Source: an uncultured Phycisphaeraceae bacterium
GTDB taxonomy: Bacteria > Planctomycetota > Phycisphaerae > UBA1845
Assembly: GCA_964651325.1 (NCBI GenBank)
Contig: CAZYXP010000001.1
Span: forward strand, 1-50,083
Reading direction: 5' to 3'
DNA: 50,083 nt
The stretch's first letter is position 1. Every line of letters begins with the position of its first letter. A program made the translations under genes and the position numbers. Shown here piece by piece: positions 17,597 to 36,394 of the stretch. The notes beneath the pieces are model-generated. The model saw only the letters and a list, made by a program, of their open reading frames with translations. It did not search any database and was not told where the DNA came from.

Positions 17597-17614
17597 CCCC
17601 ATTGGAGAAAAACC

Positions 17615-18241
17615 ATGAGCCACACCGTACTACTAGTCGATGATGAACCCAATGTCCTCAATGCCCTAACGCGCGTCTTGCGCAAGGAATCTTATAGGAT
17701 CCTCACCGCCGACTCAGCCGAGCAGGCGGCAGGGCTACTTCACGACAGCGACGTCGATCTGATCGTGTCCGACGAGGAAATGCCCGGCATGTCCGGGACG
17801 GAGTTTCTCGGACGTGTCGCGGAACAGTATCCCGAGACGGTGCGCATCGTGCTGACCGGGCACCCGACGTTGCCGGCTGCGTTGCGCGCCATCAACGAGG
17901 GCAAGGTGTATCAATTCCTTACGAAGCCATGCAACGAAATCGATCTGGCCATCACGATCCGACGCGCCTTGCAACAGAAAGACTTGCTGGCCAAGAGCCG
18001 GGACTTGCTTGAGGTTACCAAGCGCCAGTCTGTGCTCATTGACGAGGCGAGAATGGTCCGGCGATTGCGCGGCGCTACGCACAAGGATCGATCCCAAGCC
18101 TTTGCCAAGGGGAACCAGCCCGCCGATCCTCGGGAGTTGCTGGAGGAAATGGACGAGGCCGTACGCACTGGCAAGGCGTTGCTCCAGAACGTAGGAGGCG
18201 AATCCAACGCGCCGACGCCCCAACTCCAAGACCAACCATAG
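17615..18241 (+). CDS. Response regulator, REC domain with a ~85-aa C-terminal extension and no recognisable output domain
   Basis: GGAGA 7 nt upstream of the ATG. VLLVDDEPNVL...LIVSDEEMPGMSG...FLTKPC; paralogous to the two preceding REC domains. Confidence 0.85.
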   Translation: MSHTVLLVDDEPNVLNALTRVLRKESYRILTADSAEQAAGLLHDSDVDLIVSDEEMPGMSGTEFLGRVAEQYPETVRIVLTGHPTLPAALRAINEGKVYQFLTKPCNEIDLAITIRRALQQKDLLAKSRDLLEVTKRQSVLIDEARMVRRLRGATHKDRSQAFAKGNQPADPRELLEEMDEAVRTGKALLQNVGGESNAPTPQLQDQP

Positions 18242-18356
18242 GTCGCTCAACCCGCGTGCGGGATGTACGTCTGGGGGCTGTGGAGTGGCATGGCCGCGTG
18301 GCGCCGGGGGGGCTGTGGGTGGCTGCGAAGGACGTCACGCTTGGTCGTTATCGGCC

Positions 18357-18902
18357 CTAGTTGATGGTGGCGCCGCCCTTAATGGCCTTGACGTTGCCGA
18401 GTCCAATGTCCACTACAACCGCGGTGGTTACGTTCATCCCAAAGTAGCCGTGAGACAGCACGGCCACCCATCCTGAAGCGCCCGCGGCCGGATCGGCGTC
18501 GGAAGGCGAGGCCTTCACATGGACCGTATCAAGATCGTTTACCGGATTGACAGGGAAGGGCGGTCGAAGGTAGGGGCCGTAGATGTAGGGGTAGCCATAC
18601 GTCGCGCTGGGATCGCCTTCGGCGTTGCTGTACATCATCAGTTGATTGACAAAGGCGGAATTGTCCGGAGTCGATGTGCCCGCAGCATAGCCGGGGTAGG
18701 CGCCGTGCTCGGCGTAGTAAGCGTCAATGGCTTTGCGCACGTTGGTCAGGGACGCCGCTAGGGCATGGCGCGAGGAATCCTGAGCGACATTGGAAAACCG
18801 AGGAGCGGCGATGGCCGCCAACACACCGATAATCGCAACGACCAAGACGAGCTCGACCAGCGAAAATGCGTTCGAGCGGGGCTGGCGATGGCATCGAGTC
18901 AT
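18357..18902 (-). CDS. Prepilin-type N-terminal cleavage/methylation protein, GspG/pseudopilin-like (copy 2)
   Basis: Internal ATG 18902 gives MTRCHRQPRSNA/FSLVELVLVVAIIGVLAAIAAPRF with Glu at +5. IYGPYLRPPFP is reminiscent of GspG. The upstream 62 codons of the listed ORF are rejected. Confidence 0.8.
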   Translation of the reverse strand: MTRCHRQPRSNAFSLVELVLVVAIIGVLAAIAAPRFSNVAQDSSRHALAASLTNVRKAIDAYYAEHGAYPGYAAGTSTPDNSAFVNQLMMYSNAEGDPSATYGYPYIYGPYLRPPFPVNPVNDLDTVHVKASPSDADPAAGASGWVAVLSHGYFGMNVTTAVVVDIGLGNVKAIKGGATIN

Positions 18903-19094
18903 CTTGTGGTCTTTCGCCGCAAGCTTGGTGGTCCAACGCAAGGGTCGCGTGCTCCCATGGATCACGCGATGGGCTCCTGTGGATATGTCTCGCGCAAGAA
19001 AGAAACCGCGAGACCACATCAAGCGATCGCGCGGCCTCAGATGTACACTACGTTTGTTGCGAGCAGCGCGGTGGCTGATCGTGTTCAAGTTGGC

Positions 19095-19595
19095 CTAGTA
19101 CCCGTTGTACAGCAAGCCGGCTTCGTCCTTTTCGAGCGCGCCACAGTTTGCGATGATTTCGCCCGTGTCTTTGCTGTAAACCCAGCCCTCGGTGCCCGTG
19201 CCACCCACCGGTGTACCTACGACGAGCTTGAGGTTGGCGTCCCCCTTGTTGGCACAGACCGGCAGCGCCGGTATGCCGCCGCGCAGGTAGGGGCCGTAAA
19301 TGTGAACGCCGGCCGTGGTGCCGACGGTGCCCCCGACATCTGTTTTCTTGATCAACTTGTCGATCACATCTGCCTGCAACGCCCCTGTCGGGAACACCCC
19401 CGCGTGTTCGGCCGAGTACATGTCGATGGCATTGCGCATGCCTGCGAGGCTGCCGCGAAGTGATGCGTCTCCGGCACCCTTGGCGCCGCGGCTGATACGC
19501 GGTACGGCAATCGCGGCAATCACGCCGATAATCACGACGACGATCACCAACTCCACAAGACTGAAGGCGTGTTTTCTATTCATCACGTTCGACAT
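19095..19595 (-). CDS. Prepilin-type N-terminal cleavage/methylation protein, GspG/pseudopilin-like (copy 1)
   Basis: ATG 19595 (AAGGA upstream; 19583 is an alternative) gives MSNVMNRKHA/FSLVELVIVVVIIGVIAAIAVPRI. Contains IYGPYLRGGIP. Confidence 0.8.
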   Translation of the reverse strand: MSNVMNRKHAFSLVELVIVVVIIGVIAAIAVPRISRGAKGAGDASLRGSLAGMRNAIDMYSAEHAGVFPTGALQADVIDKLIKKTDVGGTVGTTAGVHIYGPYLRGGIPALPVCANKGDANLKLVVGTPVGGTGTEGWVYSKDTGEIIANCGALEKDEAGLLYNGY

Positions 19596-19698
19596 TACCG
19601 TTGTCCTTTGCTCTTGGTTCGGGGTCAAGCCGCGGGCGATCGACGCCCATTGGTCGCGCATCTTCCACTACTGGTATCGTCTTCGAGCTGCCTTTGCT

Positions 19699-20262
19699 TT
19701 AGTTCTTCGACCCGCTTGCGTTGTAGGAAAAATGCAAGGTCGCCTTACCATCGAAACACTCAAATACGGCGTCTCTGTCCACAATGTCTGTAAGCCGGCA
19801 TCCGCGAAGAGACTCTCCAATACGAATCCACGTTCCGTCAATGATGACAAGTTGGATTTCTTTGTTTGAGATCATGCCCGCCAGACGAAAAAGGGCGGCG
19901 AACGTGGTCCGATCGAGTAAGCCCGTTTTGGAGGATTCCGATAATCGTGACGATGGCACGGCGTTCCCGCCCGAATCAATCCCGTTTGATGCCCGAAAGG
20001 GCGGGGGCACGAACACGTCGGCGCGCAGCGTCGCGGACGCGAATTTCTGGACTTCAAAAGGAAACGGTAGTGCCGGAATGACCGTTTCCGGGCCCTCATT
20101 TCTCACAAGATCTAAGGGCGAGGGTGCGGGCGGAGCGGTCAGAGCGCCTGCAGCTTGCTGGGGACCGCGGGCATCTCCGGAGAGGAAAAGTTGATCAACG
20201 CCAAACGCCAGGACGCAAAGCAGCAGGACGGCGACATAGGTTTTTTTTCTCGAAGTTCCCAT
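19699..20262 (-). CDS. Membrane-anchored PilP/GspC-like protein (tentative)
   Basis: N-terminal anchor KKTYVAVLLLCVLAFGV, a Pro-rich linker, and a C-terminal segment LAGMISNKEIQLVIIDGTWIRIGESLRGCRLTDIVDRDAVFECFDGKATL that resembles the PilP/GspC HR-domain pattern. It sits directly after pilO. Confidence 0.5.
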   Translation of the reverse strand: MGTSRKKTYVAVLLLCVLAFGVDQLFLSGDARGPQQAAGALTAPPAPSPLDLVRNEGPETVIPALPFPFEVQKFASATLRADVFVPPPFRASNGIDSGGNAVPSSRLSESSKTGLLDRTTFAALFRLAGMISNKEIQLVIIDGTWIRIGESLRGCRLTDIVDRDAVFECFDGKATLHFSYNASGSKN

Positions 20263-20267
20263 AGTCG

Positions 20268-20855
20268 TTAGTCTTTTTCCTTATCGACGATGGCGGGGAT
20301 ATGCGAGAAAAGGCTGAACGTGAGCCTTGCAGTGTGCTCTGCGGTTTGCCTCAGATCTGTGCCGGAATCGCTTTGAATACTCAGGTAGCTGATGTCTGCC
20401 CAATAAGGCGCCTGTTCGACGGCATACAGGAACGCGATCAGATTGGTCGCCCGCCCGCTGACACCGTAGGCACAGCGCTGCTCCAACAAACCCGGATACG
20501 AAACCGGGGAGAGCGGGTGCTGTTCCACGACTCGGATTTGGTTTTCGGACGCTAGGGTAGCAATCGCTTGCAGATACACTTCGACGGGTGTGGATTGGGG
20601 CAGCCCGGTGCGATCCAGGACTTCTTGAGTCGCCGCCATCTCAGTTCGCTGTCGCTGACATGCCGAGGTCAGCCGATGCACGTCTTGTGCGGACTGGTTG
20701 CTTTGCGCCTGAAGACCAGGAATCGTCTGGGAGGATCGTTGGGCCTGAGCCGTCGCCAGCGAGTAGACGGCAAACGAACACAATGAGACGACGGCGACGC
20801 CGACGAGATCAATGAGTAGTACACCTCTGCCAAATTGACCAGCACGCGTATGCAC
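20268..20855 (-). CDS. pilO: PilO-like pilus/secretion assembly protein
   Basis: GTG 20855 lies 3 nt after the pilN stop (AGGTGG upstream). It has a single N-terminal TM (VLLIDLVGVAVVSLCSFAVYSL), then a coiled-coil-like segment and an alpha/beta domain. Size and position match PilO. Confidence 0.6.
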   Translation of the reverse strand: MHTRAGQFGRGVLLIDLVGVAVVSLCSFAVYSLATAQAQRSSQTIPGLQAQSNQSAQDVHRLTSACQRQRTEMAATQEVLDRTGLPQSTPVEVYLQAIATLASENQIRVVEQHPLSPVSYPGLLEQRCAYGVSGRATNLIAFLYAVEQAPYWADISYLSIQSDSGTDLRQTAEHTARLTFSLFSHIPAIVDKEKD

Positions 20856-20858
20856 CGA

Positions 20859-21473
20859 TTACCACCTGCAGATAAGTTCAAAATGAAAGTATGAGCCATC
20901 CAAGACGGGCTCACGCCGCGATTCAACCAGCTTCACGTTCCGAAAAATCTGTTCCGCCTTCAGTGCCGCAACGTACGACGCAGGGTCGCCGGCGTTGGGC
21001 GCATACCCTTGGATGTTTAGGGCCGTTGGGGCATCGATCACAATTTCTTCGCTCTGATCAGCTTCTGCCAAAGCGATCGGCGCACTTCGGCGAACAGCGC
21101 CTCTGGGAGCATCCGGATCCGTGGCCACCTTGGTGAGCCACGATCCACGGGGCAGGTGAGACGCGATCAAGGCAACCATCCCCGACCAGGCACGCTTATC
21201 ATGCAACGCCACCGCTTGATCGGCTTGGGCACGCAGCAGCTTGGATGCCGTGGTGAGCTCGCGAAGTTCACTCCGGGCCTGCGAGAACGCGTCTTGAAGC
21301 TGAGCCTGCTTGGATTCCAGCTCGTCAGCGTGGACGCGGCTGACCCAGTCTGTGCCTGCCGCCAGCGCAAGCGCGGTGGCCGCTGCTGTCGCGGCCATCA
21401 TCCAGCGCGACAGGTGTTGCCGCCGAATCCGATCGATTCGGGCCTTTTCAGGCATAAGGTTCACGCGGATCAT
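20859..21473 (-). CDS. pilN: PilN-like assembly protein
   Basis: Starts MIRVNLMPEK, the PilN-type (I/V)NL(L/M)P motif, then a TM segment WMMAATAAATALALAAG. The ATG directly abuts the pilM stop (TAAATG). Confidence 0.75.
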   Translation of the reverse strand: MIRVNLMPEKARIDRIRRQHLSRWMMAATAAATALALAAGTDWVSRVHADELESKQAQLQDAFSQARSELRELTTASKLLRAQADQAVALHDKRAWSGMVALIASHLPRGSWLTKVATDPDAPRGAVRRSAPIALAEADQSEEIVIDAPTALNIQGYAPNAGDPASYVAALKAEQIFRNVKLVESRREPVLDGSYFHFELICRW

Positions 21474-22598
21474 TTATTCCTCCATCGCCAAGCCAATGGC
21501 TAGGGCGTAGACGCCAAGCGGGTTGGCCGCACCCCGCGGAACGGCGAGCCGGCAATCGGGGCGGTCCAGATACGCCGAGGCCGGGCGAACCGGGATACCC
21601 AGTTCGCTCGAGAGAAATTCCGGCAGGTTACCCAACGCCGCGCCGCCGCCGACCACCATCAGGTCGGCTGGCTTGCGTCCGGCGTAACAGCTCAGCGCGT
21701 ATTCGTAGGATCGTTTGATCTCCGCGGTTATGGGGATGAGTTCGCTTCGAAGAACGCCAAAAAGCATGGCGCCTATGCCATCGCGTTCGCCCGCCGGCCG
21801 CGCGCCGTCCGAGTGGTCGCGGGGCGGAAGAATGCCGTGGCTGCACTTATGCACCTCGGCCGCCTTGGTGCTGATGCCCAGGTTCTCCGCGATCTGTTGC
21901 GTCCAACGCTGCCCTCCTCCGCCGGCAGATCGCACGAGAATGGGGACCGATCCAAGGCAAAGTATCAATCTCGTCTGACGATGACCCACGTCGAGGATTC
22001 CCCAGATGGTGTCGTCATCAAAGCCGCGCAGCAGGTTGCCCAAGCGGCATAGGGCCGTAGCCGAGGTATCCACGGTAACGCAATCGACGCGGGCCGCTCG
22101 GCAAGCCTGCAAGAGGTCTTCGATCAGCTTGCTTCGTGTGGTACATCCGACCAGGTTCGGCGCGGACATCGTAGTCGGCGGAAGCCGCCAATGCGTCGCT
22201 TCATTAAACTGATCGGCGTGCGGAATCAAGCGTTGCATCTCTCCGCTCACAATGGCGGAAATAGGCTCCACCGATTGGTTCAGCAGTTTATCGGGCAGTT
22301 CGAGTGCGTGGAATTCCACGTCCGGGGGGCTTATGACCACGGACACCTTCTTGCCTTGAAACTCGGCGCGCGCTACGCATCCTTCGATCCTACGCCCCCA
22401 CACTTGAGCGATGCCGTGGTCCGTTGTTTCCGCGGCGTCCGCCGAAGCATGCGACTGAGCGTGATCTTCGATTCGGCTCGAATGGAACACACTCCATCGC
22501 TCGCCTCGGCGTTGAAGTTGCACAGCGCGCACTCCGGTGCGACCCACATCAAGGGCGATGAGGCTGCGTCGGGTTCGCGTCAGTGACGGTATCAGCAT
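21474..22598 (-). CDS. pilM: PilM-like actin-fold assembly ATPase
   Basis: IALDVGRTGVRAVQL, GILDVGHRQTRLILC...RSAGGGGQRWTQQIAENLGISTKAAEVHK and MVVGGGAALGNLPEFLSSELGIPV follow the PilM/FtsA-like pattern. Confidence 0.8.
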   Translation of the reverse strand: MLIPSLTRTRRSLIALDVGRTGVRAVQLQRRGERWSVFHSSRIEDHAQSHASADAAETTDHGIAQVWGRRIEGCVARAEFQGKKVSVVISPPDVEFHALELPDKLLNQSVEPISAIVSGEMQRLIPHADQFNEATHWRLPPTTMSAPNLVGCTTRSKLIEDLLQACRAARVDCVTVDTSATALCRLGNLLRGFDDDTIWGILDVGHRQTRLILCLGSVPILVRSAGGGGQRWTQQIAENLGISTKAAEVHKCSHGILPPRDHSDGARPAGERDGIGAMLFGVLRSELIPITAEIKRSYEYALSCYAGRKPADLMVVGGGAALGNLPEFLSSELGIPVRPASAYLDRPDCRLAVPRGAANPLGVYALAIGLAMEE

Positions 22599-22616
22599 CT
22601 CGTGTTCACCTGTCCG

Positions 22617-23834
22617 CTAGCGCATCGCCGCCGTCATGTCGAACAGCGGAAGAAAAAGCGAAATGGCGACGCCGCCGACGACGAAGCCCATCACGATCAA
22701 AATGGCCGGCTCCAACAAACGCATCGTTGTGTTGATCAGCTCGCTGTTGGTTTCGTCGAGGATGTCGGCGCAGTACGCCAGGGCTGAGCCAAGATTTCCG
22801 CTCTGCTCTCCGGTTCGCACGGCCTGACAGATATAGGGTTGGATCAATCCGGTCGCCTCGAAAGCGGAACTGGGTTCGCCGCCCGACGTGACCGCGTCTT
22901 CCAGCCGGTTAAACAGGTCTTGAAAACGGTTGTTGCTCGTTGCGTTGCGCGTGAGTTCCAGGGTCTCCAGGAAGCTGACTCGTGCGGCTAGCAGCGTGCC
23001 CATCGTCCGAAAGACCTGGCCTTGGATTAGCCGCGATCGAAGCTGGCCAAACACCGGAACAACGAGCTGCATGTTGCTTAGCCACTGGCGACCTCGATCG
23101 TTCAATACGATGGCGGCAACCCCTCCCGCCACCCCCGCGATCCCTCCCAGCAGAAACGGCCAATAACCTCGCAAGAATACGCCCAGATCGAGCAAGAGCC
23201 TCGTCGGCGTCGGCGTTTCCACACCAAGCTGCACAAACATCTGATTGAATCGCGGAAGAACGAAGAAAAGCAGAACCAAGAGAATCGTAGAGGCCATGGT
23301 GATCAGCAGCGCCGGATAGGTCAGGGCGCCGATGATCTTGTTGCGTATGGCGCGACGCTGCTGGACGATGCTCGACAGCCTCTCGAACATTTCCGCAATC
23401 GTGCCGCTGGCCTCGCCCGCCGCGATGATCGCGCAGAACACCGGATCGAACGATCGTGGAAACTGGCGGAGCGCCTCGGTCAGCGGGGTTCCTTCTTCGA
23501 GATCCGTCGTGAGTTTTTCGAGCACGTCCGCATGCTGCGGTTTGGTCATCTGTTTGCGAATCGAAGAAATTGCCGGGACAAGCGTGCTGCCCGAGTTCAT
23601 GAGCATTGCCATTTGGCGCGTAAACAGTGCCAATGTCTTGATAGGCAGCGCGACTTGGTGCAGCGTCTTTGCTTCCGTGACGCGCTTCGTTGATTCTTTC
23701 TTGGTCACTTCGATATCGGTGACAAACAGCCCCCGCCCGCGGAGCACCTCCCTGGCCTCCTGAACGTTGCCGGCTTCTATGGAATCCCGGGTTTTCTGCC
23801 CCGCTTGGTTGACGGCCCTGTAGGTAAGTATCAT
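22617..23834 (-). CDS. pilC: Type II secretion / type IV pilus platform protein (GspF/PilC family)
   Basis: 405 aa with a duplicated T2SS-F architecture and three hydrophobic blocks (ALTYPALLITMASTILLVLLFFVLPRF, ILIVMGFVVGGVAISLFLPLF). Its ATG overlaps the pilB stop as ATGA. Confidence 0.85.
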   Translation of the reverse strand: MILTYRAVNQAGQKTRDSIEAGNVQEAREVLRGRGLFVTDIEVTKKESTKRVTEAKTLHQVALPIKTLALFTRQMAMLMNSGSTLVPAISSIRKQMTKPQHADVLEKLTTDLEEGTPLTEALRQFPRSFDPVFCAIIAAGEASGTIAEMFERLSSIVQQRRAIRNKIIGALTYPALLITMASTILLVLLFFVLPRFNQMFVQLGVETPTPTRLLLDLGVFLRGYWPFLLGGIAGVAGGVAAIVLNDRGRQWLSNMQLVVPVFGQLRSRLIQGQVFRTMGTLLAARVSFLETLELTRNATSNNRFQDLFNRLEDAVTSGGEPSSAFEATGLIQPYICQAVRTGEQSGNLGSALAYCADILDETNSELINTTMRLLEPAILIVMGFVVGGVAISLFLPLFDMTAAMR

Positions 23835-25621
23835 GCGCTCACCTCCGCTCCTCGACCGGTGGGATCACCCACTTCCAATGATTCCGATCGCGTGACGCGC
23901 AAGACCTCCTCCAGCGTCGAATCGCCGTGCTCCACGAGGTCGAGCGCTTTTTCACGCAGCGTGCGCCATCCGATTTGCGCCAGGTATTCACGTATTTGGC
24001 CTTCGGACACATCCTGCTGGATCATCCGTTTTAGCTCGGCGTCCAGGAGCATCACTTCGTAGATCCCGATCCGCCCCTTGAATCCTGTGTTCGCGCACTG
24101 CCGGCAGCCTTCGCCTTTTTGGAACAGCTCATTGGTGCGATGCCCCCAGCCGACACGTTCCAGCAAGGCAGGCGGCGGGTAGTACGACGCCTTGCACGAC
24201 GAGCAAATCTTGCGGGCCAGCCGCTGGGCCACAAACCCCAGCACCGATGAGGCGATCAAGAACGGTTCAATGCCCATGTCCGCCAGCCGCATCACGCCTC
24301 CCGGGCAATCGTTGGTGTGAAGCGTGGCGAGCACCAGATGGCCCGTAAGTGCCGCTTGAATGGCAACGCGCGCCGTTTCCTCGTCGCGAATCTCACCGAC
24401 CATGATGACATCAGGGTCTTGACGCAAAATGGAACGCAACGCGCGAACGAACGAAAGCCCCACCGATTCGTTGACCTGAATCTGGTTGATCAGCGGCAGT
24501 TGGTATTCGACGGGATCTTCGATCGTGACAATGTTGGTCGATTCATTGCGCAGAAGATCCAACGCGGAATAGAGCGTCGTGGTCTTGCCACTGCCGGTCG
24601 GCCCTGTGACGAGCATCAGCCCGTAGGGACTGGTGACCATGGCCTCTATGGCGACTCGATCCTGGCCGCGCACGCCGAGATCGCTCAGCTCGAAGCTGAT
24701 GTTGGATCGGTCGAGAATGCGCAGCACGATCTTTTCACCGAGCACGGTGGGCATGGAGGAGACGCGCAGGTCGATCTCACGTCCATCGGCCACGATGTGA
24801 ACGCGCCCTTCTTGCGGCAGGCGCTTTTCCGCGATATCCATTCGTCCGATGACCTTGACACGCGATACGATCGCCGCGTGCATGCCCTTGGGCGGCTTGA
24901 GCATCTCCCGCAAACGGCCGTCGATCCGATAGCGAATGTGTGTCGCGTCGCGGTCGGGCTCGATGTGGATGTCGCTGGCGCCCTCGCGAAGCGCCGTCAA
25001 GATTGCCAAATTCACCAGATTGACGATCGGGCTGCCCTCGATCATTTGATCGAGGTCGGTAACCGGCCCTTCATCGATTGCCTCAACCTCGGAGATTTGA
25101 ATGTCGCTCTCTTCCATCGATGCGAGGAAGGAGTCGACATTGACTTCCTTGGCCAGGTACTTGTTTTGGAATTCCTCGAGGTTTTCTTCCAAGACCAAGA
25201 CGGGGCGAATGCTACACCCGGTCAAGCCTGCCAGCCGATCTTGCAGGGGCAGCGACTTGGGTTCGACCATCGCGACGGTCAGGTCGTCGCGAACGCGAAA
25301 CAGCGGGAGCACGCGCATGCGCTGCGCTTCCTCCTTCGGGATCAGCTTGGCCACCTTCGGATCGATCAATCCATGTCGCAGCAAACAGCCCTTGACGCTT
25401 AGCCGTGTGGACAGCGCCTGCACGAGCGCCGTTGAGGAAAGAGCGCCGATGTCGACCAGAGATCGGCCGATACGCACGCCGGTCGTCGATTGCCGCGCAA
25501 GCCCCTCGGCCAGTTGCTCGGGCGTGATGACGCCGTCGCGGACGAGCTGATCCCCCAACCGAACCGCACTTTCAATGGTTAGCTTTGCCAATGGCTCGTC
25601 TCTTGGAATCGTTCGCGCCAC
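23831..25621 (-). CDS. pilB: GspE/PilB-family secretion ATPase with an N-terminal MshEN-type c-di-GMP-binding domain
   Basis: GTG 25621. Walker A VTGPTGSGKTTT; Asp/His boxes (IMVGEIRDEETA, TGHLVLATLHTN); tetracysteine CSSC...CRQC. N-terminus RLGDQLVRDGVITPEQLAEGLARQ-STTGV-RIGRSLVDIGALSSTALVQALSTR. Confidence 0.9.
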   Translation of the reverse strand: MARTIPRDEPLAKLTIESAVRLGDQLVRDGVITPEQLAEGLARQSTTGVRIGRSLVDIGALSSTALVQALSTRLSVKGCLLRHGLIDPKVAKLIPKEEAQRMRVLPLFRVRDDLTVAMVEPKSLPLQDRLAGLTGCSIRPVLVLEENLEEFQNKYLAKEVNVDSFLASMEESDIQISEVEAIDEGPVTDLDQMIEGSPIVNLVNLAILTALREGASDIHIEPDRDATHIRYRIDGRLREMLKPPKGMHAAIVSRVKVIGRMDIAEKRLPQEGRVHIVADGREIDLRVSSMPTVLGEKIVLRILDRSNISFELSDLGVRGQDRVAIEAMVTSPYGLMLVTGPTGSGKTTTLYSALDLLRNESTNIVTIEDPVEYQLPLINQIQVNESVGLSFVRALRSILRQDPDVIMVGEIRDEETARVAIQAALTGHLVLATLHTNDCPGGVMRLADMGIEPFLIASSVLGFVAQRLARKICSSCKASYYPPPALLERVGWGHRTNELFQKGEGCRQCANTGFKGRIGIYEVMLLDAELKRMIQQDVSEGQIREYLAQIGWRTLREKALDLVEHGDSTLEEVLRVTRSESLEVGDPTGRGAEVSA

Positions 25622-25626
25622 ATGCT

Positions 25627-25640
25627 ACGCAACGTTGCGT
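25627..25640. promoter_or_regulatory. 14-bp perfect palindrome ACGCAACGTTGCGT in the 35-nt STAS-pilB gap, 6 nt upstream of the pilB start
   Basis: Read directly. The function (operator or small RNA hairpin) is inferred only. Confidence 0.35.
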
Positions 25641-25656
25641 CTGGGTCTTGCGGCAG

Positions 25657-25992
25657 TTACATGAAACTCTTAGCGGCGTCGCGCACATCTTCGAAAAATC
25701 GAAAACGCCGCGACAGACCCGTTAGTTCCAAAATTTCTCTACAAGTGGGTGATACCTTGGCCAACTTCAGGCCAGCGGCGCGGCTTGCCAGTTCGTCCGC
25801 AGCCGACAGCAGGCCTTCAAGCGCGGCGCTGTCCATGTAGGGTACGTCCGCCAACGACACAACGATTCTCGGCGTCGGGCAGTCGATCAACTGGGCGAGT
25901 TCCTCGCAAAACGCCTCCGCGTCGTCGTCTACTAAGGCGCCCGTGGGCGACAGAACATGCACCGTGCCAATCGCCTGATGGTCGAGTTTCAT
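25657..25992 (-). CDS. STAS-domain protein (SpoIIAA-like anti-sigma-factor antagonist family)
   Basis: ATG 25992 overlaps the upstream gene's TGA (ATGA). MKLDHQAIGTVHVLSPTGALV...VVSLADVPYMDSAALEGLL...LKLAKVSPTCREILELTGL fits the STAS pattern and includes a DS(A) phospho-site position. Confidence 0.8.
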   Translation of the reverse strand: MKLDHQAIGTVHVLSPTGALVDDDAEAFCEELAQLIDCPTPRIVVSLADVPYMDSAALEGLLSAADELASRAAGLKLAKVSPTCREILELTGLSRRFRFFEDVRDAAKSFM

Positions 25993-27332
25993 GTCGAAGC
26001 TCCCGCGGCCGCCACGTCTTTGGCCAGATCGCTGGCCAAGGCGCACTGGCTCACACGCGCGCGATGACACTGCCCTAGCGCGCCGCTGAGCAGGCCTCTG
26101 AGGTCGGGCGTGTCCACGCCGCTTCCCACCAAACCGCAACGAACCTGCACCGCTATGCCCCATCGACTTTCGTCGCCGCAAACCCGCTCCACGCGCTCCA
26201 ACAACTGACGCACGATCAATCCCGCCAGATCCGAATCGACCCGCCTCAATAGGATCACGAAGCGTTCGCCGTCAAAACGACCGATGCGATCATCCATGCG
26301 GACTTTGCGCCGAAGCTCGTGGGCGCACGCACGCACGATTTCCTCGGCGATTTCCCATTGGCCGACGTCCGATAAACGGCGCAAGCCTTCCAGCGCGAAC
26401 ACCGCGACGGCCACGGGTTCGCCGTCTGAATAGGATTCCTTAAGGGCTTGTTCGGCATCGACCAGAAAGGCCCGCCGGACGCTGAGCCCCGAAACGGGAT
26501 CATCCAGCGTGGCCGCCCGGTTGTCGCACGAATCTTGCAGCATGCACCAGCACTGCGACGCGATCACCTCCATGCACGCCAGCAGATCGCGACACACCTG
26601 GGGCGGCGAATCCAACTGCCCGACCGTCACGATGCCCAGTCTCCGATTGCCTCTCTTGATCGGAAAACACCATTGAATCCGGCCGGCATCGTTCTGATCG
26701 AGCTGATCGAGAAACTGGTGTTCAATCGAATCCCCGGAAACGTAGGCGCGTCCCGTCGTGGCCACGTATCCGACAATGCCCAACCGCGCCGACAATTCAG
26801 CATCGTCGGACCAGGAATCCGAGGCCTGCAGCGGCACCAGATGGTTCATCTCCGGCACCAGCCGATAGGGGCGAACATGGGTGGCCCCGCAGCCAGTGTG
26901 GAGCATCGACCTGAGCCATTCGTCAAAGCCCGGCCAGGGGTCCGCTTGGTGGCCGTTTTGCCCAAGCCATTCATTGAATTGCTTGATGGCGGTGGTGATG
27001 ACGGGAAGCGATGGGTCGGGGTGGGCGACGCTCGCTGGCGCCGGGGTGGCGGAATCCAGTGTGGTCTGCCCCATCGGTGCGGGTCCGATCCGTTCCACCG
27101 TCTCACCGGCCCACCCCGCTACGGTGACGATGGCTAGGGCGCCGGCCAGGCACATGGTCGTGGCCAGCGAATCGGTCCAGAGGCCCACGTTGGGTGAGGC
27201 TTGGGCAAACGCAACCCAAAAGCTCGCGCAGATCAGCCCCAGGGCGAATCCGCGCCCGTGGCCCAACAAACGGCCACCGAGGCCGGCGCCGAGCAGGATG
27301 GGGAACCATGGAAGAAGTAACATCATTGACAT
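25989..27332 (-). CDS. Membrane protein with a GAF domain and a degenerate GGDEF domain (DGERF) that keeps an RxxD I-site
   Basis: About 3 N-terminal hydrophobic helices. GAF-like LGIVGYVATTGRAYVSGD. GGDEF fold DPVSGLSVRRAF...RMDDRIGRFDGERFVILL (26259-26300); codons checked base by base. Confidence 0.85.
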   Translation of the reverse strand: MSMMLLLPWFPILLGAGLGGRLLGHGRGFALGLICASFWVAFAQASPNVGLWTDSLATTMCLAGALAIVTVAGWAGETVERIGPAPMGQTTLDSATPAPASVAHPDPSLPVITTAIKQFNEWLGQNGHQADPWPGFDEWLRSMLHTGCGATHVRPYRLVPEMNHLVPLQASDSWSDDAELSARLGIVGYVATTGRAYVSGDSIEHQFLDQLDQNDAGRIQWCFPIKRGNRRLGIVTVGQLDSPPQVCRDLLACMEVIASQCWCMLQDSCDNRAATLDDPVSGLSVRRAFLVDAEQALKESYSDGEPVAVAVFALEGLRRLSDVGQWEIAEEIVRACAHELRRKVRMDDRIGRFDGERFVILLRRVDSDLAGLIVRQLLERVERVCGDESRWGIAVQVRCGLVGSGVDTPDLRGLLSGALGQCHRARVSQCALASDLAKDVAAAGAST

Positions 27333-27336
27333 GGCA

Positions 27337-28638
27337 TCATTCCGTATCGACTAGAGCCGAATCCTCCCAAACATGGGTAAACGTATTCGCTTGGTCGAGC
27401 AGACGCTCCCAGGTTATCGATCCTTCCGTCAGCGTCGCGCGGATCATGCGATCGAATGTCTTCTGCAAGTTCGGATCGAGCGTTGTGCCTGATTCATCAC
27501 TCATAATCGCCAGCGCCTTGGTCCAGTCGAATGCCTTGCGATAGGTTCTTGTGGAGGTCAGTGCATCGAACACGTCGGCGATCTGGATGACGCGGGCCTG
27601 CAAGGGAATCGCCTCACCCTTCAATCCTTCCGGGTACCCCTTGCCATCGTAATGCTCATGGTGATGGAGCACGCCGTCCAGCGCGTCGGCAAGGTGGGGA
27701 ACCCCCTGGACGACGTCATAGCTGCGTACCGGGTGTTCCTTCATGTGCTCAAATTCTTCCGGGGTGAGCGCTCCGTCTTTCTTCAAGACATCGTCTCGGA
27801 TGCCGATCTTGCCCACGTCGTGCAGCAGAGCGCTCCATTGGAGCATGCGATGATCGCGCCCCGTCAGCCCGATCTCGGTTGCCAGCATGGTCGCGAAATA
27901 GGCGACCCGGGTGGAGTGGCCTGCGGTGTACTTGTCCTTTTGATCCACGGCATTGACCAGCGATCGCACCATGGACACCGACATGGTTCGAAGTTCACTG
28001 AGGAGCCGGCAGTTGCGGATCAGGTCGCCGCAAAAATTCGATAGCGATTCAACCACCGACATGTCACTCGCCCGCAGCTCGCGCGATTCCTCCGGTCGAG
28101 CGATTACGATCGCGCCTACGACGACGTCGCCCGCGATCATCGGCGAAACGAGGAGCTCCACCAGATCCGATCCCGCGCCGTCAATTCGGCGGACCACGGC
28201 GCGATGCTCGTCGCACAGTTCCCGAATCATTTCCCCGATTCCCGGTACCCCCTGGATCGGTTGCCCGACCAACACACAGGCGCGGCGACCCGCCCCGGAA
28301 TAGATCCCGACGTCGTAGCAGGCGAGGCTTCTTGCAAGGTTCTCATGCAGCACGCTTAGCACGGCGTACTCATCCTTGAGATTCGGCAGCGCCTTGGTGA
28401 CGCTGAAAACGATCCCGAGTTGTTCGTACACCGTGAACAGTTCATCCGCCAGCCCGTCTTGCTCGACGCGCAGCGCACCCAATCCTCGCTCAACCCCATC
28501 GAGGTGCTCAAGCAGTTGAGGTTGTGTATCTCCATGCGCGATGCCGTCACGCAGGCGCGACAGGCTCCGTTGCAGCAGCGGATGCAAAGGCAACGCCTGA
28601 TCGGGTAGTCCGGTGGGATGGTTTGAGGTTGCGGTCAT
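27337..28638 (-). CDS. GAF-like domain plus canonical HD-GYP c-di-GMP phosphodiesterase
   Basis: GHSTRVAYFA...ALLHDVGKIG...HHHEHYDGKGYPEGL...QIADVFDALTSTRTYRKA. Start chosen at ATG 28638; TTG 28665, which overlaps the REC gene by 20 nt, is an alternative. Confidence 0.85.
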   Translation of the reverse strand: MTATSNHPTGLPDQALPLHPLLQRSLSRLRDGIAHGDTQPQLLEHLDGVERGLGALRVEQDGLADELFTVYEQLGIVFSVTKALPNLKDEYAVLSVLHENLARSLACYDVGIYSGAGRRACVLVGQPIQGVPGIGEMIRELCDEHRAVVRRIDGAGSDLVELLVSPMIAGDVVVGAIVIARPEESRELRASDMSVVESLSNFCGDLIRNCRLLSELRTMSVSMVRSLVNAVDQKDKYTAGHSTRVAYFATMLATEIGLTGRDHRMLQWSALLHDVGKIGIRDDVLKKDGALTPEEFEHMKEHPVRSYDVVQGVPHLADALDGVLHHHEHYDGKGYPEGLKGEAIPLQARVIQIADVFDALTSTRTYRKAFDWTKALAIMSDESGTTLDPNLQKTFDRMIRATLTEGSITWERLLDQANTFTHVWEDSALVDTE

Positions 28639-28645
28639 TGAATTC

Positions 28646-29017
28646 TTAACCCGCGGCTGTGGCAAAAAGCCGTTCGATTTCGGCTACAAGCTGAGAGGGA
28701 ACAAACGGTTTGGGAAACAACTGCGCGTTCAGCGAAGCGATGGAATCCACGATGTCTTGCTGGTCGCACCGTGAACTCAAGAGTATGTATGGAATCTCCG
28801 CATCGACGTCCGCCCGTACATGGCGAAGCAGTTCGATGCCGTTCATCACGGGCATGTTGATGTCGGAGATGATCATATCGACCGTCTGCGTGCGTAAGAT
28901 TTCTCGCGCGTCAGCCCCGTTTGCGGCCTGAAGCACTGCGTATCCGTGGCGCGTGATCCAGAGGGAAGTGACCTTCAGGATGTGGGCGTCATCTTCGACC
29001 AGAAGAATGCTACTCAT
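28646..29017 (-). CDS. Single-domain response regulator (REC only)
   Basis: ILLVEDDAHIL...MIISDINMPVMNG...LFPKPF. Its ATG overlaps the kinase stop by 8 nt (ATGAGTAG), with GGAAGGAAG upstream. Confidence 0.9.
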   Translation of the reverse strand: MSSILLVEDDAHILKVTSLWITRHGYAVLQAANGADAREILRTQTVDMIISDINMPVMNGIELLRHVRADVDAEIPYILLSSRCDQQDIVDSIASLNAQLFPKPFVPSQLVAEIERLFATAAG

Positions 29018-31130
29018 CTCGATCTTCCTTCCCTGTCCCCGCCAAACTGGTTTCTCTTGTCGTCTGGTGAGGAAGTTTCAACATGAAAGTCGATCCTTCG
29101 CCCTTGGCGCTGAGCAACTCGATGTCGCCCCCGTGGCGCCGTGCGATGGCCCGAGCGGTATACAAGCCGATGCCGGTTCCGGTTTCCGTCTGGACCTCGT
29201 CGTCCTGCGCACGGTAGAATTTCTCAAAAACGCGGGACTGATCCTCCGCATCAATCCCGACCCCGTTGTCCTTCACGGTGACCACCACGCCGTCGGTGTT
29301 GACCTGGCATCCCACCACAACGTTGCCATCGGCCGGCGTGTACTTGATGGCATTACCGAGCAGGTTGTTGACGACCACGGCCAGCTTGTCCCGATCGGCC
29401 TGGATCGCTTCGAGCTTCGACGGCAAGAGCAGTTGCAGGTCGATGTTCTTCTCGTCGGCCAGACCCCGCACGTCGCGCACCGCGTCGGACATCAAGCCGC
29501 CCAGATCAACCTGATCCAGTTTCAAGTCGATGCCGCCGACCTCGAGCTGCGAAACGCTGAGCACATCTTCGATCAGCCGCGAGAGTCGTCGTGTCTCCTT
29601 GTTGATCACGTTGTAGCATTCTGTAATCACCTTGGGATCATCAAACATCCCGGAAGAGAGCGTCTCTGAATACGCCCGGATGTTGGTCAGCGGCGTTCTC
29701 AGTTCGTGCGTGACCTGTCCGATCAACTCCTCCCGAGCCTTTTCCGCGCGGGTCTGCTGAGAGATGTCTCGTATGAGGACCAACGCCTCGCCGTGGTGCT
29801 GTTTCCGTTGCAGCGGGATGATCCACGTCCTGAAAATATCCGGTTCTTCTTCGTCGTCTTGATCCATTTGAATCAATTCGTTGTGTTGCTGGTAGGTGCC
29901 TTCCGGCTGCAACGAAGAACGGAGCACCTTCACGACCTTCTCTCCGACCCCATTGGCCACGGTTTTGTGGATGCTGTTCTGCTTGACCTCTTCCCATGAC
30001 CAGCCGAACAGGCGACAGGTCGTCGCGTTTGCGTATTCGATCCGCTCTTCTTCCGTGATGAAGAGAATGCCGTCGGGAAGTGCGTTGAGCACTTCTGCAA
30101 GTTCGCCGCCGCTACTGGTGGACAACAGCCGACAAAGCTCGCGGTCGGCTTCAGCGCGTTCCGTATTCTCGACCGCGCTCCGCGCCAGCTCGACAAGCTG
30201 ATTCCAGGATTCGGTCGTAGTGTCCGATTCGTCCTCGATGCGTAACGCCGTCAAGTCTTCCTCGATTCGATCGCATTCGGCGCGAAGGCGACTGGCAATT
30301 CGCGATGCCGAGCGCAATTGCTCGCGAAGACAACGGTACACAACAAAAAGCGCTCCGAGCACAATGAAGACCACGACCAACAAGCCGGCTTTGCCCGAAG
30401 CTGTATGGGCCGTCGAAGCTGTCGATAGGACCAACTCGACCAGAATATCGGACGGGGGGGGATGCCCCGGCGATGTGGGCGTCGCATCGCCGTTGGCCAT
30501 CGATGCTGGCGATTCAGACGCTTGAACCACGCTCGCTTGTTCCCCAGCCGCGGAGTTTGGCTCGTGCGGCTCCGGCAAAGCACCGATGCCCGTTTGACCG
30601 TCCTCGCCAGGATCATCAGTCGCGCCGCGAGCGTTCGGCCCGCTGCGGTTCACGCGAATCCGGGCACGATACCGACGCGAAGTGCCGCCCGGGATTCGCT
30701 CCCGCGCAATTGCGGATCGAGCCTCGTTGCCGGCAAGGTTCGGAAATGCGGATGGTTCGACCCGAGTGCCACGAGTCGAAGAGGGTTGCGATGATTGTAC
30801 GAGCCCATCTGAATCGAATATCCTCCACGATTCCACTTGGAAATGTTGCGAAAAATCGTGGAGCGCAATTCTCGTGGCCACACCTCGCCCTTGCTCATTC
30901 TTGCCTTTACCCGGAGTCGTCTCGATTTCTCGGACCATCGAAGAGAAGGCGTAGTCCGCCGATTTTTCGAACCGTTCGGTCGATTCGTCGCGTGCTCGAG
31001 AGACCGCAAACCGGGAGATGGCCCCAAGCCCGACCAGGTAAATCAGCACGATTGAAAGCCCGAACCACCTCGGAACTTCTTCCGCGGTTAGAAACGCACT
31101 GATTTTTCGTCGCGCAGATATCACAGGCAA
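29010..31130 (-). CDS. PhoR-like membrane sensor histidine kinase (2 TM, periplasmic loop, PAS, HisKA, HATPase)
   Basis: TTG 31130 (GTG 31124 is an alternative). TM segments WFGLSIVLIYLVGLGAI and LLVVVFIVLGALFVVY. PAS LPDGILFITEEERIEYANATTCRLFGW. H-box VTHELRTPLTNIRAYSETL. ATP-binding blocks NLLGNAIKYT, DNGVGI, GTGIGL. Confidence 0.9.
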   Translation of the reverse strand: MPVISARRKISAFLTAEEVPRWFGLSIVLIYLVGLGAISRFAVSRARDESTERFEKSADYAFSSMVREIETTPGKGKNEQGRGVATRIALHDFSQHFQVESWRIFDSDGLVQSSQPSSTRGTRVEPSAFPNLAGNEARSAIARERIPGGTSRRYRARIRVNRSGPNARGATDDPGEDGQTGIGALPEPHEPNSAAGEQASVVQASESPASMANGDATPTSPGHPPPSDILVELVLSTASTAHTASGKAGLLVVVFIVLGALFVVYRCLREQLRSASRIASRLRAECDRIEEDLTALRIEDESDTTTESWNQLVELARSAVENTERAEADRELCRLLSTSSGGELAEVLNALPDGILFITEEERIEYANATTCRLFGWSWEEVKQNSIHKTVANGVGEKVVKVLRSSLQPEGTYQQHNELIQMDQDDEEEPDIFRTWIIPLQRKQHHGEALVLIRDISQQTRAEKAREELIGQVTHELRTPLTNIRAYSETLSSGMFDDPKVITECYNVINKETRRLSRLIEDVLSVSQLEVGGIDLKLDQVDLGGLMSDAVRDVRGLADEKNIDLQLLLPSKLEAIQADRDKLAVVVNNLLGNAIKYTPADGNVVVGCQVNTDGVVVTVKDNGVGIDAEDQSRVFEKFYRAQDDEVQTETGTGIGLYTARAIARRHGGDIELLSAKGEGSTFMLKLPHQTTRETSLAGTGKEDRDE

Positions 31131-31436
31131 GTATCCCGAGAACGAAACGATTTAGGCACCCATCGTGCTTATCGAACGGGTATCGAAACGCCTTAAGCTT
31201 GTCTGAGACTTCCCGGACGCGCCAACCGGAAGATGGCGACCGCAGGTCCATAGCGACGCTGCGGTCCCGTAACCAAACAGGCTTCCACCCAAGCATAGAA
31301 TACGGCATAATGTTTGGGGCTAAGAAGTCCGAGAATCGCGCATGCCGCCGCTGAAAGGAGACGCGATTGGAACCGCGCCCGTCACGGTGCGGAACGCGTT
31401 GCAACAGGCCATGCAGCTTTAACAAGGAGCCCCAAG

Positions 31437-32804
31437 TTGGCCGACCACCAAACCTACTCCCCCATGCCGCCCTGTTCACACGAGCCGGCGCCATACGCCG
31501 GACCACCGCGCGACGAGGTACTGGCGCTTCGCCGCGAGTTTGTTGCGCCCGGTGTGTTCACCTATTACAAAGAGCCCATCGAAATCGTCGAAGGGCACAT
31601 GCAATACTTATGGGACGAGGGCGGCAAACGCTATCTCGACGCCATCGCGGGCGTGGTAAGCGTCTCCGTGGGCCATTGCCACCCGAAGATCGTTGAAGCG
31701 GTTCGCCGGCAGGTCGGCCGGTTGATGCACACGACGACGATCTACCTACACCCAGAAATCGCCCTCTACGCCAAGAATCTCGCCGCCCATTTTCCCGACA
31801 GCGGCGGCCTCACGGCCACGTATTTCACCAATTCCGGCAGCGATTCCAACGACCTGGCCACGCTCATGGCCCGGCTGCACACCGGCCAACACGATGTCAT
31901 TGCCCTGCGAAACGGCTACCACGGCGGATCGCAATCCACCATGGCGCTAACCGCGATGGGCAACTGGAAGTTTCCGATCCCCCACTCGTTCGGTGTCAAG
32001 CATCTGGCGTGTCCCGATTGTTATCACTGCCCATTCGGCCTTACCTACCCGGATTGCGACGTGAAGTGCGCGCGGGAAATCGAGCCGCTTCTCGCGTTTG
32101 AAACGTCGGGCAAGGTGGCGGCCTTTATCGCCGAGCCGATTCAAGGCGCCGGCGGCGTCATCGTCCCGCCGCCCGAATACTTCAAGATCATTTATGACGC
32201 CGTCCGTGCGGCGGGGGGGCTCTGCATCAGCGACGAAGTCCAAACCGGATTTGCTCGGACAGGTGACCATTTCTGGGGATTTGAAAACTACGGCGTGGTG
32301 CCGGACATCGTCACCATGGCTAAGGGCATCGGCAACGGCGCGCCGTTGGGCGCTGTCACCACCCGACCGGAAATCGCCGCCCAACTCAAGCAAAAGCTTC
32401 ATTTCAACACGTTCGGCGGCAACCCCGTTTCCATCGTGCAAGGCAAAACGACCCTCGAAATCATCGACGCCGAGCAGTTGCAACAAAACGCCAAGGAAAT
32501 TGGCGGCTACTTGAAACAGCGGTTGATCGACTTGCAGCGCGACCATCCGGTCATAGGGGACGTGCGCGGCTTGGGCTTGCTGATCGGCGTCGAACTCGTG
32601 GTGGATCCCCAATCCAAAGAGCCCGCCACCGAGTTGGCCGTCGCCCTCCACGAGGAAACCAAGAATCGCGGCCTGCTCATCGGCCGAGGCGGCATCCACG
32701 GCAACGTCCTTCGCATCAAGCCGCCCATGTGCATCACGCGCGAAGACATCGACTTCCTAACCGACTGCCTCGACGCATCCCTAAACGCCGTGTTGAAACG
32801 GTGA
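31437..32804 (+). CDS. Class-III pyridoxal-phosphate aminotransferase (AGXT2 / beta-alanine-pyruvate-like)
   Basis: TTG 31437 has AAGGAG (31424-31429) 7 nt upstream; ATG 31464 is an alternative. LDAIAGVVSVSVGHCHP, FTNSGSDSNDLA, ISDEVQTGFARTG, DIVTMAKGIGNG (Schiff-base Lys). Confidence 0.85.
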   Translation: MADHQTYSPMPPCSHEPAPYAGPPRDEVLALRREFVAPGVFTYYKEPIEIVEGHMQYLWDEGGKRYLDAIAGVVSVSVGHCHPKIVEAVRRQVGRLMHTTTIYLHPEIALYAKNLAAHFPDSGGLTATYFTNSGSDSNDLATLMARLHTGQHDVIALRNGYHGGSQSTMALTAMGNWKFPIPHSFGVKHLACPDCYHCPFGLTYPDCDVKCAREIEPLLAFETSGKVAAFIAEPIQGAGGVIVPPPEYFKIIYDAVRAAGGLCISDEVQTGFARTGDHFWGFENYGVVPDIVTMAKGIGNGAPLGAVTTRPEIAAQLKQKLHFNTFGGNPVSIVQGKTTLEIIDAEQLQQNAKEIGGYLKQRLIDLQRDHPVIGDVRGLGLLIGVELVVDPQSKEPATELAVALHEETKNRGLLIGRGGIHGNVLRIKPPMCITREDIDFLTDCLDASLNAVLKR

Positions 32805-34877: not shown

Positions 34878-35133
34878 TGACGTTCGTCCTCCGTATCCAA
34901 CCCTAGATCCAGCCCGGACCGGTGCCGGCGCACAGCTCCCGCTCCTATAAGATATAGACACCGCCCGATCCAATCCGGCGGGGCCGATTCGCAATTATTT
35001 GTTAACGATTTCGAAATGAAACCGGCACGACCCGGTCAAACTACGCAAATTGGCCCCTAACGGCTAGCGAGACGCTTCCGATCGCCGAGCCAATGCTTCG
35101 CGCAACGTATAAGACATCGCTGAATCGAGCGGA

Positions 35134-36237: not shown

Positions 36238-36394
36238 GCAATGCTTCTCCTTATAATCAAACCAATCCGCGACCATCACTAGTGAAGGGCAAGTCTTGAA
36301 CATGCGTAGCCAACCATGGTACTGTGCCAATAGCCTTTTTGGCAACAATAAAGTGCAGGAAATAGCGTTCGACGATTTGTGCGATCGCAAAAGA

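Follow-up and report, generated by a model that had tools for sequence, protein, structure and literature searches.

The 50-kb stretch of DNA considered here (the window) comes from an uncultured marine-type bacterium of the class Phycisphaerae, and at 18357-31130 it carries 13 consecutive open reading frames (ORFs) of the minus strand, whose coordinates, as given by an earlier reading of the letters alone (the first-pass annotation), were reproduced in the ORF check. This block, referred to below as the cassette, places genes for signalling by cyclic diguanylate (c-di-GMP) directly upstream of the genes for a filament-assembly machine, in the order histidine kinase (HK), REC, HD-GYP, GGDEF*, STAS, PilB, PilC, PilM, PilN, PilO-like protein, P187, pseudopilin 1 and pseudopilin 2, where GGDEF* denotes a degenerate GGDEF protein. 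With a probability of roughly 0.6, the cassette is considered to be one conserved functional unit, known so far only in uncultured Phycisphaerae, that would work by the mechanism proposed below. The domains were assigned with the Pfam and NCBIfam models, and the co-directional genes bear the domains first ascribed to them, except that the PilO-like protein scores under the threshold and P187 has no match. The features of the cassette are as follows.

29010..31130, minus strand: sensor histidine kinase (PAS, HisKA, HATPase_c; exact start codon uncertain)
28646..29017, minus strand: single-domain response regulator, REC only (REC 80.2 bits)
27337..28638, minus strand: putative HD-GYP phosphodiesterase with an N-terminal GAF-like domain (HD_5 137.8 bits)
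25989..27332, minus strand: membrane-anchored GAF-GGDEF* protein (GGDEF 39.7 bits)
25657..25992, minus strand: STAS protein of the anti-sigma-antagonist type, 111 aa (STAS 58.7 bits)
23831..25621, minus strand: PilB/GspE-family assembly ATPase (T2SSE 449.5 bits)
22617..23834, minus strand: PilC/GspF platform protein (T2SSF 182 bits)
21474..22598, minus strand: PilM-like actin-fold protein (PilM 55 bits)
20859..21473, minus strand: PilN-like protein (PilN 29.6 bits)
20268..20855, minus strand: PilO/GspM-like bitopic protein (by position, size and one transmembrane segment; 14.4 bits, sub-threshold)
19699..20262, minus strand: P187, 187 aa (no domain match; candidate secretin connector)
19095..19595, minus strand: pseudopilin 1 (N_methyl; weak GspG similarity)
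18357..18902, minus strand: pseudopilin 2 (N_methyl; weak GspG similarity)

The conservation of this order was followed from both ends of the cassette. Full-length homologues of GGDEF* number more than 170, and the named ones are all from Phycisphaerae or from metagenome-assembled genomes (MAGs) of Planctomycetota. A scan seeded with GGDEF*, with one genome per species of the Genome Taxonomy Database (GTDB), yielded 59 Phycisphaerae loci, all of them from MAGs and none from an isolate, in which the 13 window proteins were located by tblastn (related loci are designated by L and a number). The order is identical and co-directional in each of the 43 loci whose contig reaches the pseudopilin, while 15 of the remaining loci end at a contig edge and one, L019, is broken after pilB. 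The identity to the window proteins ranges in these loci from 68 to 95% for PilB, from 31 to 82% for GGDEF* and from 21 to 60% for P187. An independent scan of metagenome contigs, seeded with pseudopilin 1, gave 18 loci with at least about 9 kb upstream, and 17 of them keep the genes from PilB back to HD-GYP, among them L122, which is without GGDEF* only. The exhaustive search with a GGDEF* profile resulted in 214 clusters (50% identity) at E<=1e-30, and three distant homologues sampled from its low-scoring tier each belong to the same cassette. The same order was thus found in more than 80 independent loci at 29-82% protein identity, whereas the genes flanking the cassette are not conserved, with the exceptions of the closest relative, L002, and of an aminotransferase gene in seven loci. 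Since the order recurs in so many diverged loci while the flanks differ, it is beyond chance, and the synteny of the signalling genes with pilB, on which the first-pass annotation had made its interpretation depend, was found by this neighbourhood check practically throughout the family.

Three of the related loci have peculiarities of their own. On the complete Phycisphaerales MAG chromosome CP070718.1 (L019:11864-14102), pilB is present as two overlapping ORFs, followed by unrelated genes of the opposite strand. The locus L054 (JANQQE010000021.1) is labelled Alphaproteobacteria, which is probably a case of mis-binning or mislabelling, judging from the sequence, because its cassette arrangement and identity values are like those of the Phycisphaerae loci L055 and L057. 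On a near-identical contig of the Joint Genome Institute (sample 3300002231; L001:1788-3090), the HD-GYP protein, intact in the window, is called as pieces of 327 and 88 aa, the split being probably due to a frameshift or an assembly error.

The GGDEF* protein combines a degenerate active site with a preserved ligand site, as had been noticed at first sight: the GGDEF loop reads DGERF, the DxD motif is ALE and the substrate Asn is replaced, while the RxxD I-site (RMDD) is intact at the canonical spacing of five residues upstream of the loop (motif block 26259-26300). The same division is seen in the orthologues, with RxxD intact in 80 of 80 and GG[DE]EF in none of the 80, and in the relatives the loop consists of DG, DD or DE followed by S-R-F, DxD is turned into [ATS]xE, and Asn into T or V. 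By its loop, DxD and Asn, the protein fails as an active diguanylate cyclase and is predicted to be catalytically dead, and the invariance of RxxD while the remaining active site decays argues for ligand binding. An AlphaFold (AF2) model based on 33 homologues, with a predicted local distance difference test score (pLDDT) of 79, contains three N-terminal membrane helices, a GAF-like domain, whose GAF_2 match in sequence is sub-threshold, and the GGDEF domain. The best Foldseek match of this model is the GAF-GGDEF cyclase Dcsbis (4zmu), over 344 aligned columns, and the sequence matches include the degenerate GGDEF domain of FimX and, weakly, SiaD.

The second putative receptor is PilB, which carries the Walker A motif GPTGSGKT (in 52 of 57 orthologues) and a Cys4 motif. 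The published MshEN signature comprises two 24-residue motifs, RLGxx(h)(h)xxG(h)(h)xxxxLxxxLxxQ, separated by a 5-residue spacer (PMC5013675), and residues 21-73 of PilB (25403-25561) show the same layout of two 24-residue motifs and a 5-residue spacer, namely RLGDQLVRDGVITPEQLAEGLARQ-STTGV-RIGRSLVDIGALSSTALVQALSTR. The N-terminal domain reaches 53.5 bits with NF053729, the curated model of the MshE-type c-di-GMP motif, against the cut-off of 38, and aligns with the solved MshEN domain of V. cholerae (5HTL) at E 4e-16. The sole deviation, an Arg in place of Gln at the end of motif 2, is tolerated by the relaxed form of the published motif; among the orthologues, motif 1 is canonical in every one of the 40 sequences picked up by the search pattern. 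By these motif and model tests, which support the MshEN assignment made earlier, PilB is predicted to be a c-di-GMP-binding ATPase of the MshEN type.

The motifs of the remaining signalling proteins are kept as well. The histidine kinase has two transmembrane segments by hydrophobicity (residues ~25-43 and 250-268), which flank an outside loop of ~205 aa, and an H-box HELRTPL (residues 475-481) present in 49 of 53 orthologues; it resembles PnpS, WalK and PhoR but scores under the cut-off of each family. The phospho-acceptor Asp of the REC protein lies within MIISDINMP, and the Asp motif is found in 51 of 55 orthologues. HDxGK together with HHExxDGxGYP are the extended motifs that define active HD-GYP enzymes (PMC3749722). 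Both are present here, in agreement with the canonical motifs reported for the window, as HDVGK at 27808-27822 and HHEHYDGKGYP at 27631-27663; HDxGK is kept in 54 of 57 orthologues, the GYP motif is also conserved, and the N-terminal GAF domain is sub-threshold (20.9 bits against 27). The STAS protein matches PF01740 (58.7 bits) and just passes TIGR00377 (54.0 bits, cut-off 53.45), with Asp-Ser at the usual phosphorylation position (YMDSAAL) in all the commonest orthologue variants listed. As judged from such alignments, the c-di-GMP-relevant motifs are under purifying selection. Since the signalling block is without an output domain, no DNA-binding or other output domain having been detected among the 13 cassette proteins by Pfam and NCBIfam, the machine is its obvious target. 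The cassette had been called a complete c-di-GMP cassette, and this does not hold: it contains a predicted phosphodiesterase and two putative receptors and no active cyclase.

The tightness of the cassette varies along its length. The HK and REC genes overlap by 8 nt, HD-GYP and GGDEF* are 4 nt apart, the GGDEF* stop and the STAS start (25992) overlap as ATGA, and so do PilB and PilC; 35 nt separate STAS from PilB and 18 nt PilC from PilM, PilM and PilN abut, and the next two gaps, from PilN to the PilO-like gene and from there to P187, are of 3 and 5 nt. The junctions listed in the first-pass annotation were therefore correct, but its almost complete lack of intergenic space does not extend to the pseudopilins, which are preceded by 103 nt (pseudopilin 1) and 192 nt (pseudopilin 2); their starts at 19595 and 18902 are preferred because the leaders are then of normal length and match the orthologues. 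For the HD-GYP protein the start is probably 28638, the longest ORF beginning at 28665. In about 65-90 loci used for the junction medians, the median intergenic distance is at most 18 nt at 9 of 11 junctions, and for GGDEF*/STAS it is a 4-nt overlap. The single operon first assumed is overstated, since the two other junctions, between STAS and PilB and between P187 and the pseudopilin, keep a gap in which internal promoters are possible; therefore, three tightly coupled sub-blocks are distinguished: signalling, motor with platform, and filament subunits. Intrinsic terminators (16 against 12.6 in shuffled sequence) and sigma-70 promoters (2 against 4.3) did not differ from the shuffled control, both scans being uninformative for Planctomycetota. 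No obvious conserved motif was seen in 90 aligned regions upstream of the pilin gene, and the possibility that the two gaps contain a riboswitch for c-di-GMP, or another known RNA, was rejected, since Rfam gave no match at E<=1 within 17500-32000.

The platform and filament proteins are less uniform. The PilO-like protein has 14.4 bits against the Pfam cut-off of 22, and its position is kept in all the complete loci. P187 consists of one transmembrane segment, a variable linker and a conserved C-terminal beta domain of ~60 aa; no PilP match was obtained for it with Pfam or NCBIfam, including 34 orthologues, 10 of which weakly match T2SSB, and there is a weak CdsD_C match too. The weak T2SSB matches fit the role of a secretin connector without establishing it, and P187 is at most a weakly supported candidate, from its sequence, for a connector of the PilP/GspC/GspB type. 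The direct assignment to PilP/GspC was tried and rejected, since the homologue search gave three relatives and the profile of the 34 orthologues no PDB match at E<=10; its AF2 model is poor (pLDDT 40.7). Pseudopilin 1, probably the major subunit, has a leader of 10 aa, with Ala at -1, and Glu5; residues 1-31 of the mature protein hardly vary across the family. Its two Cys (…PVCANKG… and …ANCGA…) are either both present or both replaced across the orthologues, a pattern that a disulfide retained by only some family members would give. Pseudopilin 2 has a 12-aa leader, also with Ala at -1, and is absent from 11 of the 43 related loci.

All four prepilin-type N-termini of the window, which are on the minus strand (18849-18869, 19548-19568, ~34829 and ~36189), have Ala at -1, in the context F(S/T)L(V/I)E after this position, where the usual residue is Gly. 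The orthologues of the two pseudopilins show a mix of Gly, Ala and Ser, and both observations suggest that the prepilin peptidase of the Phycisphaerae clade is less strict about the residue at -1; no prepilin peptidase was found in the 50-kb window. The other two N-termini belong to tandem paralogous proteins of ~420 aa (33726-34994 and 35134-36390, minus strand; …AFTLIELLVVIAIIALLISILLPSL…) without a counterpart in the related loci.

In many GTDB loci and in most of the long metagenome loci the cassette continues co-directionally into a long form. Its four extra genes, which resemble those of minor (pseudo)pilins, encode a GspH-like protein (26.6 bits with Pfam GspH), a protein of ~365 residues with a weak, sub-threshold prepilin-type N-terminus and no conserved stretch, a GspI/PilV-like protein and a protein of ~415 residues. 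The secretin gene comes next on the same strand in L074, L100 and L139, being recognised by Pfam Secretin (~122 bits) with STN and Secretin_N in L100 and L139 and by tblastn in L074; a TPR protein follows in L100 and L139, the L074 contig breaking off within its secretin gene. L141, a distant locus, has the genes for secretin and TPR protein directly after the pilin in convergent orientation, and its TPR protein bears a weak resemblance to the pilotins PilW and Tgl. The secretins of the relatives score 198 bits as PilQ and 189 bits as GspD, both under the cut-off. Elsewhere in the window, no homologue of the long-form minor pilins, secretin or TPR protein was found, tblastn giving no match to the relatives' secretins, and no Secretin domain in ORFs of at least 400 aa, whether scanned or antisense to scanned genes. 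The short form is common to the window, L002, L062, L103 and L111, and the minor pilins, PilQ-like secretin and TPR protein of the window organism are probably encoded elsewhere in the genome, or were lost. Because relatives carry the secretin in cis, the earlier epithet secretin-less is right for the window locus, but not for the machine.

A second signalling cluster (12335-18241, plus strand) converges on the cassette and encodes a PAS histidine kinase bearing a Tll0287-like sensor, REC-HDOD, REC-HD-GYP and a REC protein extended by a tail of ~90 aa. With it, the window comprises two HD-GYP enzymes and one HDOD protein; the scanned ORFs of the 50-kb window yielded no active GGDEF cyclase. 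The conservation of these convergent neighbours was considered and rejected, the last two genes being shared only with L002.

From this arrangement the following mechanism is proposed. The envelope-sensing kinase would phosphorylate the single-domain REC protein, which would control the HD-GYP enzyme as a local sink of c-di-GMP. The messenger itself, provided by cyclases encoded elsewhere, would bind the MshEN domain of PilB and license filament assembly. The membrane-anchored GGDEF* may sense c-di-GMP at its I-site and, together with the translationally coupled STAS protein, may recruit, hold or release PilB at the PilC/PilM platform. For each of these steps there is a counterpart among the known systems compared below. 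A further step, which is tentative and rather doubtful, would be to regard the GGDEF*-STAS pair as a new c-di-GMP effector, a membrane-anchored ligand-dependent partner switch docking on the assembly ATPase, and, with HK, REC and HD-GYP, as the mark of a separate subtype of filament machine, self-regulating and restricted to Phycisphaerae.

Several points weigh against the cassette being one unit with this mechanism. The gene order, domains, motif conservation and synteny are observed, whereas the interactions are deduced from adjacency. There is no active diguanylate cyclase in the cassette, and c-di-GMP must therefore come from elsewhere. In L122 (2208-3850), HD-GYP is directly followed by STAS, the GGDEF* gene being absent and all the other genes kept, and GGDEF* is therefore dispensable in at least one lineage. 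The GGDEF DxD, which is needed for the contact with HD-GYP in Xanthomonas (PMC3749722), is replaced in GGDEF*. In 37 of 40 orthologues the last residue of MshEN motif 2 is Arg or Lys and not the canonical Gln, which only the relaxed published motif permits. Neither an RsbW-type kinase/anti-sigma factor nor a PP2C phosphatase was found in the 13 cassette proteins and scanned neighbours. Between STAS and pilB the median distance is 54 nt, with 27% of loci at 20 nt or less, and between P187 and the pseudopilin it is 106 nt, with 6% at 20 nt or less; these two kept gaps would allow pilB and the pilin gene to begin transcripts of their own. Finally, the output may be either a pilus or secretion.

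The last point leads to the most probable of the rivals, in which c-di-GMP would gate a type II secretion system, with a short periplasmic pseudopilus pushing folded proteins through the secretin and no surface pilus. The scores point in both directions. The ATPase misses both equivalog cut-offs, with 582 bits as PilB (cut-off 675.65) and 569 as GspE (630.25), and is thus slightly closer to the type IVa protein, while PilC is best as GspF (308 against 424) and both pseudopilins as GspG (34-38 against 88.85), so that every type II secretion score is under its cut-off. In Pfam, PilM_2, PilN, T2SSF and T2SSE are above the cut-offs and PilO is under. The PilP and PilQ secretin expected of a type IVa system were not found in the window, and neither were, for type II secretion, GspE, GspF and GspG at equivalog level, a fused GspL, GspM, GspC and GspD, no GspC or GspD match having been obtained in the window. 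In favour of secretion are also the GspH- and GspI-like minor pseudopilins of the relatives, the T2SSB resemblance of part of the P187 orthologues, and the result that 82 of 83 loci show no PilT-like second ATPase within ~10 kb. However, the platform is split into PilM, PilN and PilO-like proteins instead of GspL/GspM, the secretin of the relatives has the PilQ-type architecture (STN and one Secretin_N) and scores best as PilQ, being followed by the PilW/Tgl-like TPR protein, and no cargo genes are conserved beside the cassette. With such a mixed signature (GspF-like platform, split PilM/N/O-type alignment proteins, GspG/H/I-like subunits and a PilQ-like secretin), a purely secretory output is a serious alternative, albeit one with the odds against it.

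An improbable alternative concerns the GGDEF*-STAS pair, which would act as a phospho-switch independent of c-di-GMP, with the STAS Ser being phosphorylated and toggling between GGDEF* and PilB, and the I-site being a structural relic. The conserved Asp-Ser of STAS speaks for it; against it are the RxxD motif, invariant in all 80 orthologues despite the decay of the remaining active site, and the lack of a gene for a STAS kinase or phosphatase in the cassette. Two merely neighbouring independent units, namely a signalling operon (HK through STAS) that acts on targets elsewhere in the cell and, next to it, an independent pilus operon, are very unlikely because the synteny is deep and two-sided: the conserved STAS-pilB gap, the break of L019 after pilB and the frequently global action of HD-GYP and GGDEF proteins are outweighed by an adjacency and orientation that persist to 29-33% GGDEF* identity with seeds from either end, while all the genes outside the block change between loci, PilB itself has a predicted c-di-GMP-binding domain, and the signalling block is without another output.

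Local c-di-GMP signalling, in which one messenger controls one machine via adjacent enzymes and receptors, has so far been deduced for the most part from dispersed genes and from studies of protein interactions, and uncultured Phycisphaerae are abundant in sediments and groundwater. The cassette as one functional unit would place the proposed circuit of sensor, relay, sink, receptor, adaptor and motor in one block that is intact across a bacterial class, and its arrangement suggests a hard-wired local switch for a filament or secretion machine. It provides a compact and testable parts list of 13 proteins for reconstitution, a natural test case for local c-di-GMP signalling, a possible new role of STAS proteins, which would serve filament motors as adaptors, and the first functional clue to the control of attachment or secretion in uncultured Phycisphaerae.

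Among the known systems, the type IVa pilus and type II secretion machines of the type IV filament superfamily (PMC6668835) share with the cassette PilB/GspE, PilC/GspF, the PilM-PilN-PilO-like proteins and the prepilin-type subunits and, in the relatives only, the minor pilins, secretin and TPR protein; they differ in that the core proteins here are under both sets of equivalog cut-offs, with no retraction ATPase nearby. The MshE/PilB2/PilF-type ATPases, as in the MSHA pilus of V. cholerae (PMC5013675, PMC7096442), have the same N-terminal 53-residue tandem motif fused to T2SSE, but their second motif ends with Gln instead of Arg, and their c-di-GMP enzymes are encoded elsewhere, whereas here the phosphodiesterase, receptor-type GGDEF, STAS and two-component pair are directly upstream. 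An enzymatically dead c-di-GMP protein as a receptor is known from the FimX-PilZ-PilB system of X. citri (PMC8389850) and FimX-PilB of P. aeruginosa (PMC5595344), and the Xanthomonas FimX acts via a small adaptor, promoting PilB-driven pilus assembly (PMC8389850). FimX, however, uses a degenerate EAL domain for c-di-GMP binding and PilZ as the adaptor, while in the cassette, which contains no EAL or PilZ gene, these places would be taken by the candidate I-site of a GAF-GGDEF protein and by STAS. PelD of the Pel polysaccharide system (PMC7112168) is similar in combining transmembrane helices, GAF and a degenerate GGDEF with RxxD, encoded within the operon of the controlled machine, but it controls a glycosyltransferase and not a filament motor; homology of GGDEF* with PelD was rejected, PelD being absent from the PDB sequence matches and from the top 50 Foldseek matches, where GAF-GGDEF cyclases are the nearest.

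In the HsbA-HsbD and SiaC-SiaD pairs of P. aeruginosa (PMC5085249, PMC8457831), the GGDEF protein has a small binding partner that resembles an anti-sigma antagonist, and HsbD has an influence on type IV pili (PMC5085249); these GGDEF proteins are active cyclases with their own kinase and phosphatase, whereas in the cassette the GGDEF is predicted to be dead and neither partner is encoded. The RpfC/RpfG-GGDEF-PilZ-PilT/PilU network of X. campestris (PMC3749722) has a similar succession of parts, with a kinase, a REC-controlled HD-GYP, a GGDEF acting independently of cyclase activity, an adaptor and a pilus ATPase, but its genes are scattered, its REC and HD-GYP are fused and its target is the retraction motor, while here all is in one block, whose sole ATPase is of the assembly type. 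Searches of the open full-text literature turned up no account of the cassette, in line with the first-pass remark that no described system with exactly this layout was known to it, and no article connecting STAS domains to PilB. The control of filament ATPases by c-di-GMP, via MshEN or via degenerate signalling proteins with small adaptors, is known already, and what appear to be new are the entire chain kept together as a single block that is conserved throughout a bacterial class, the STAS protein in the adaptor position and the I-site-only GAF-GGDEF in the receptor role.

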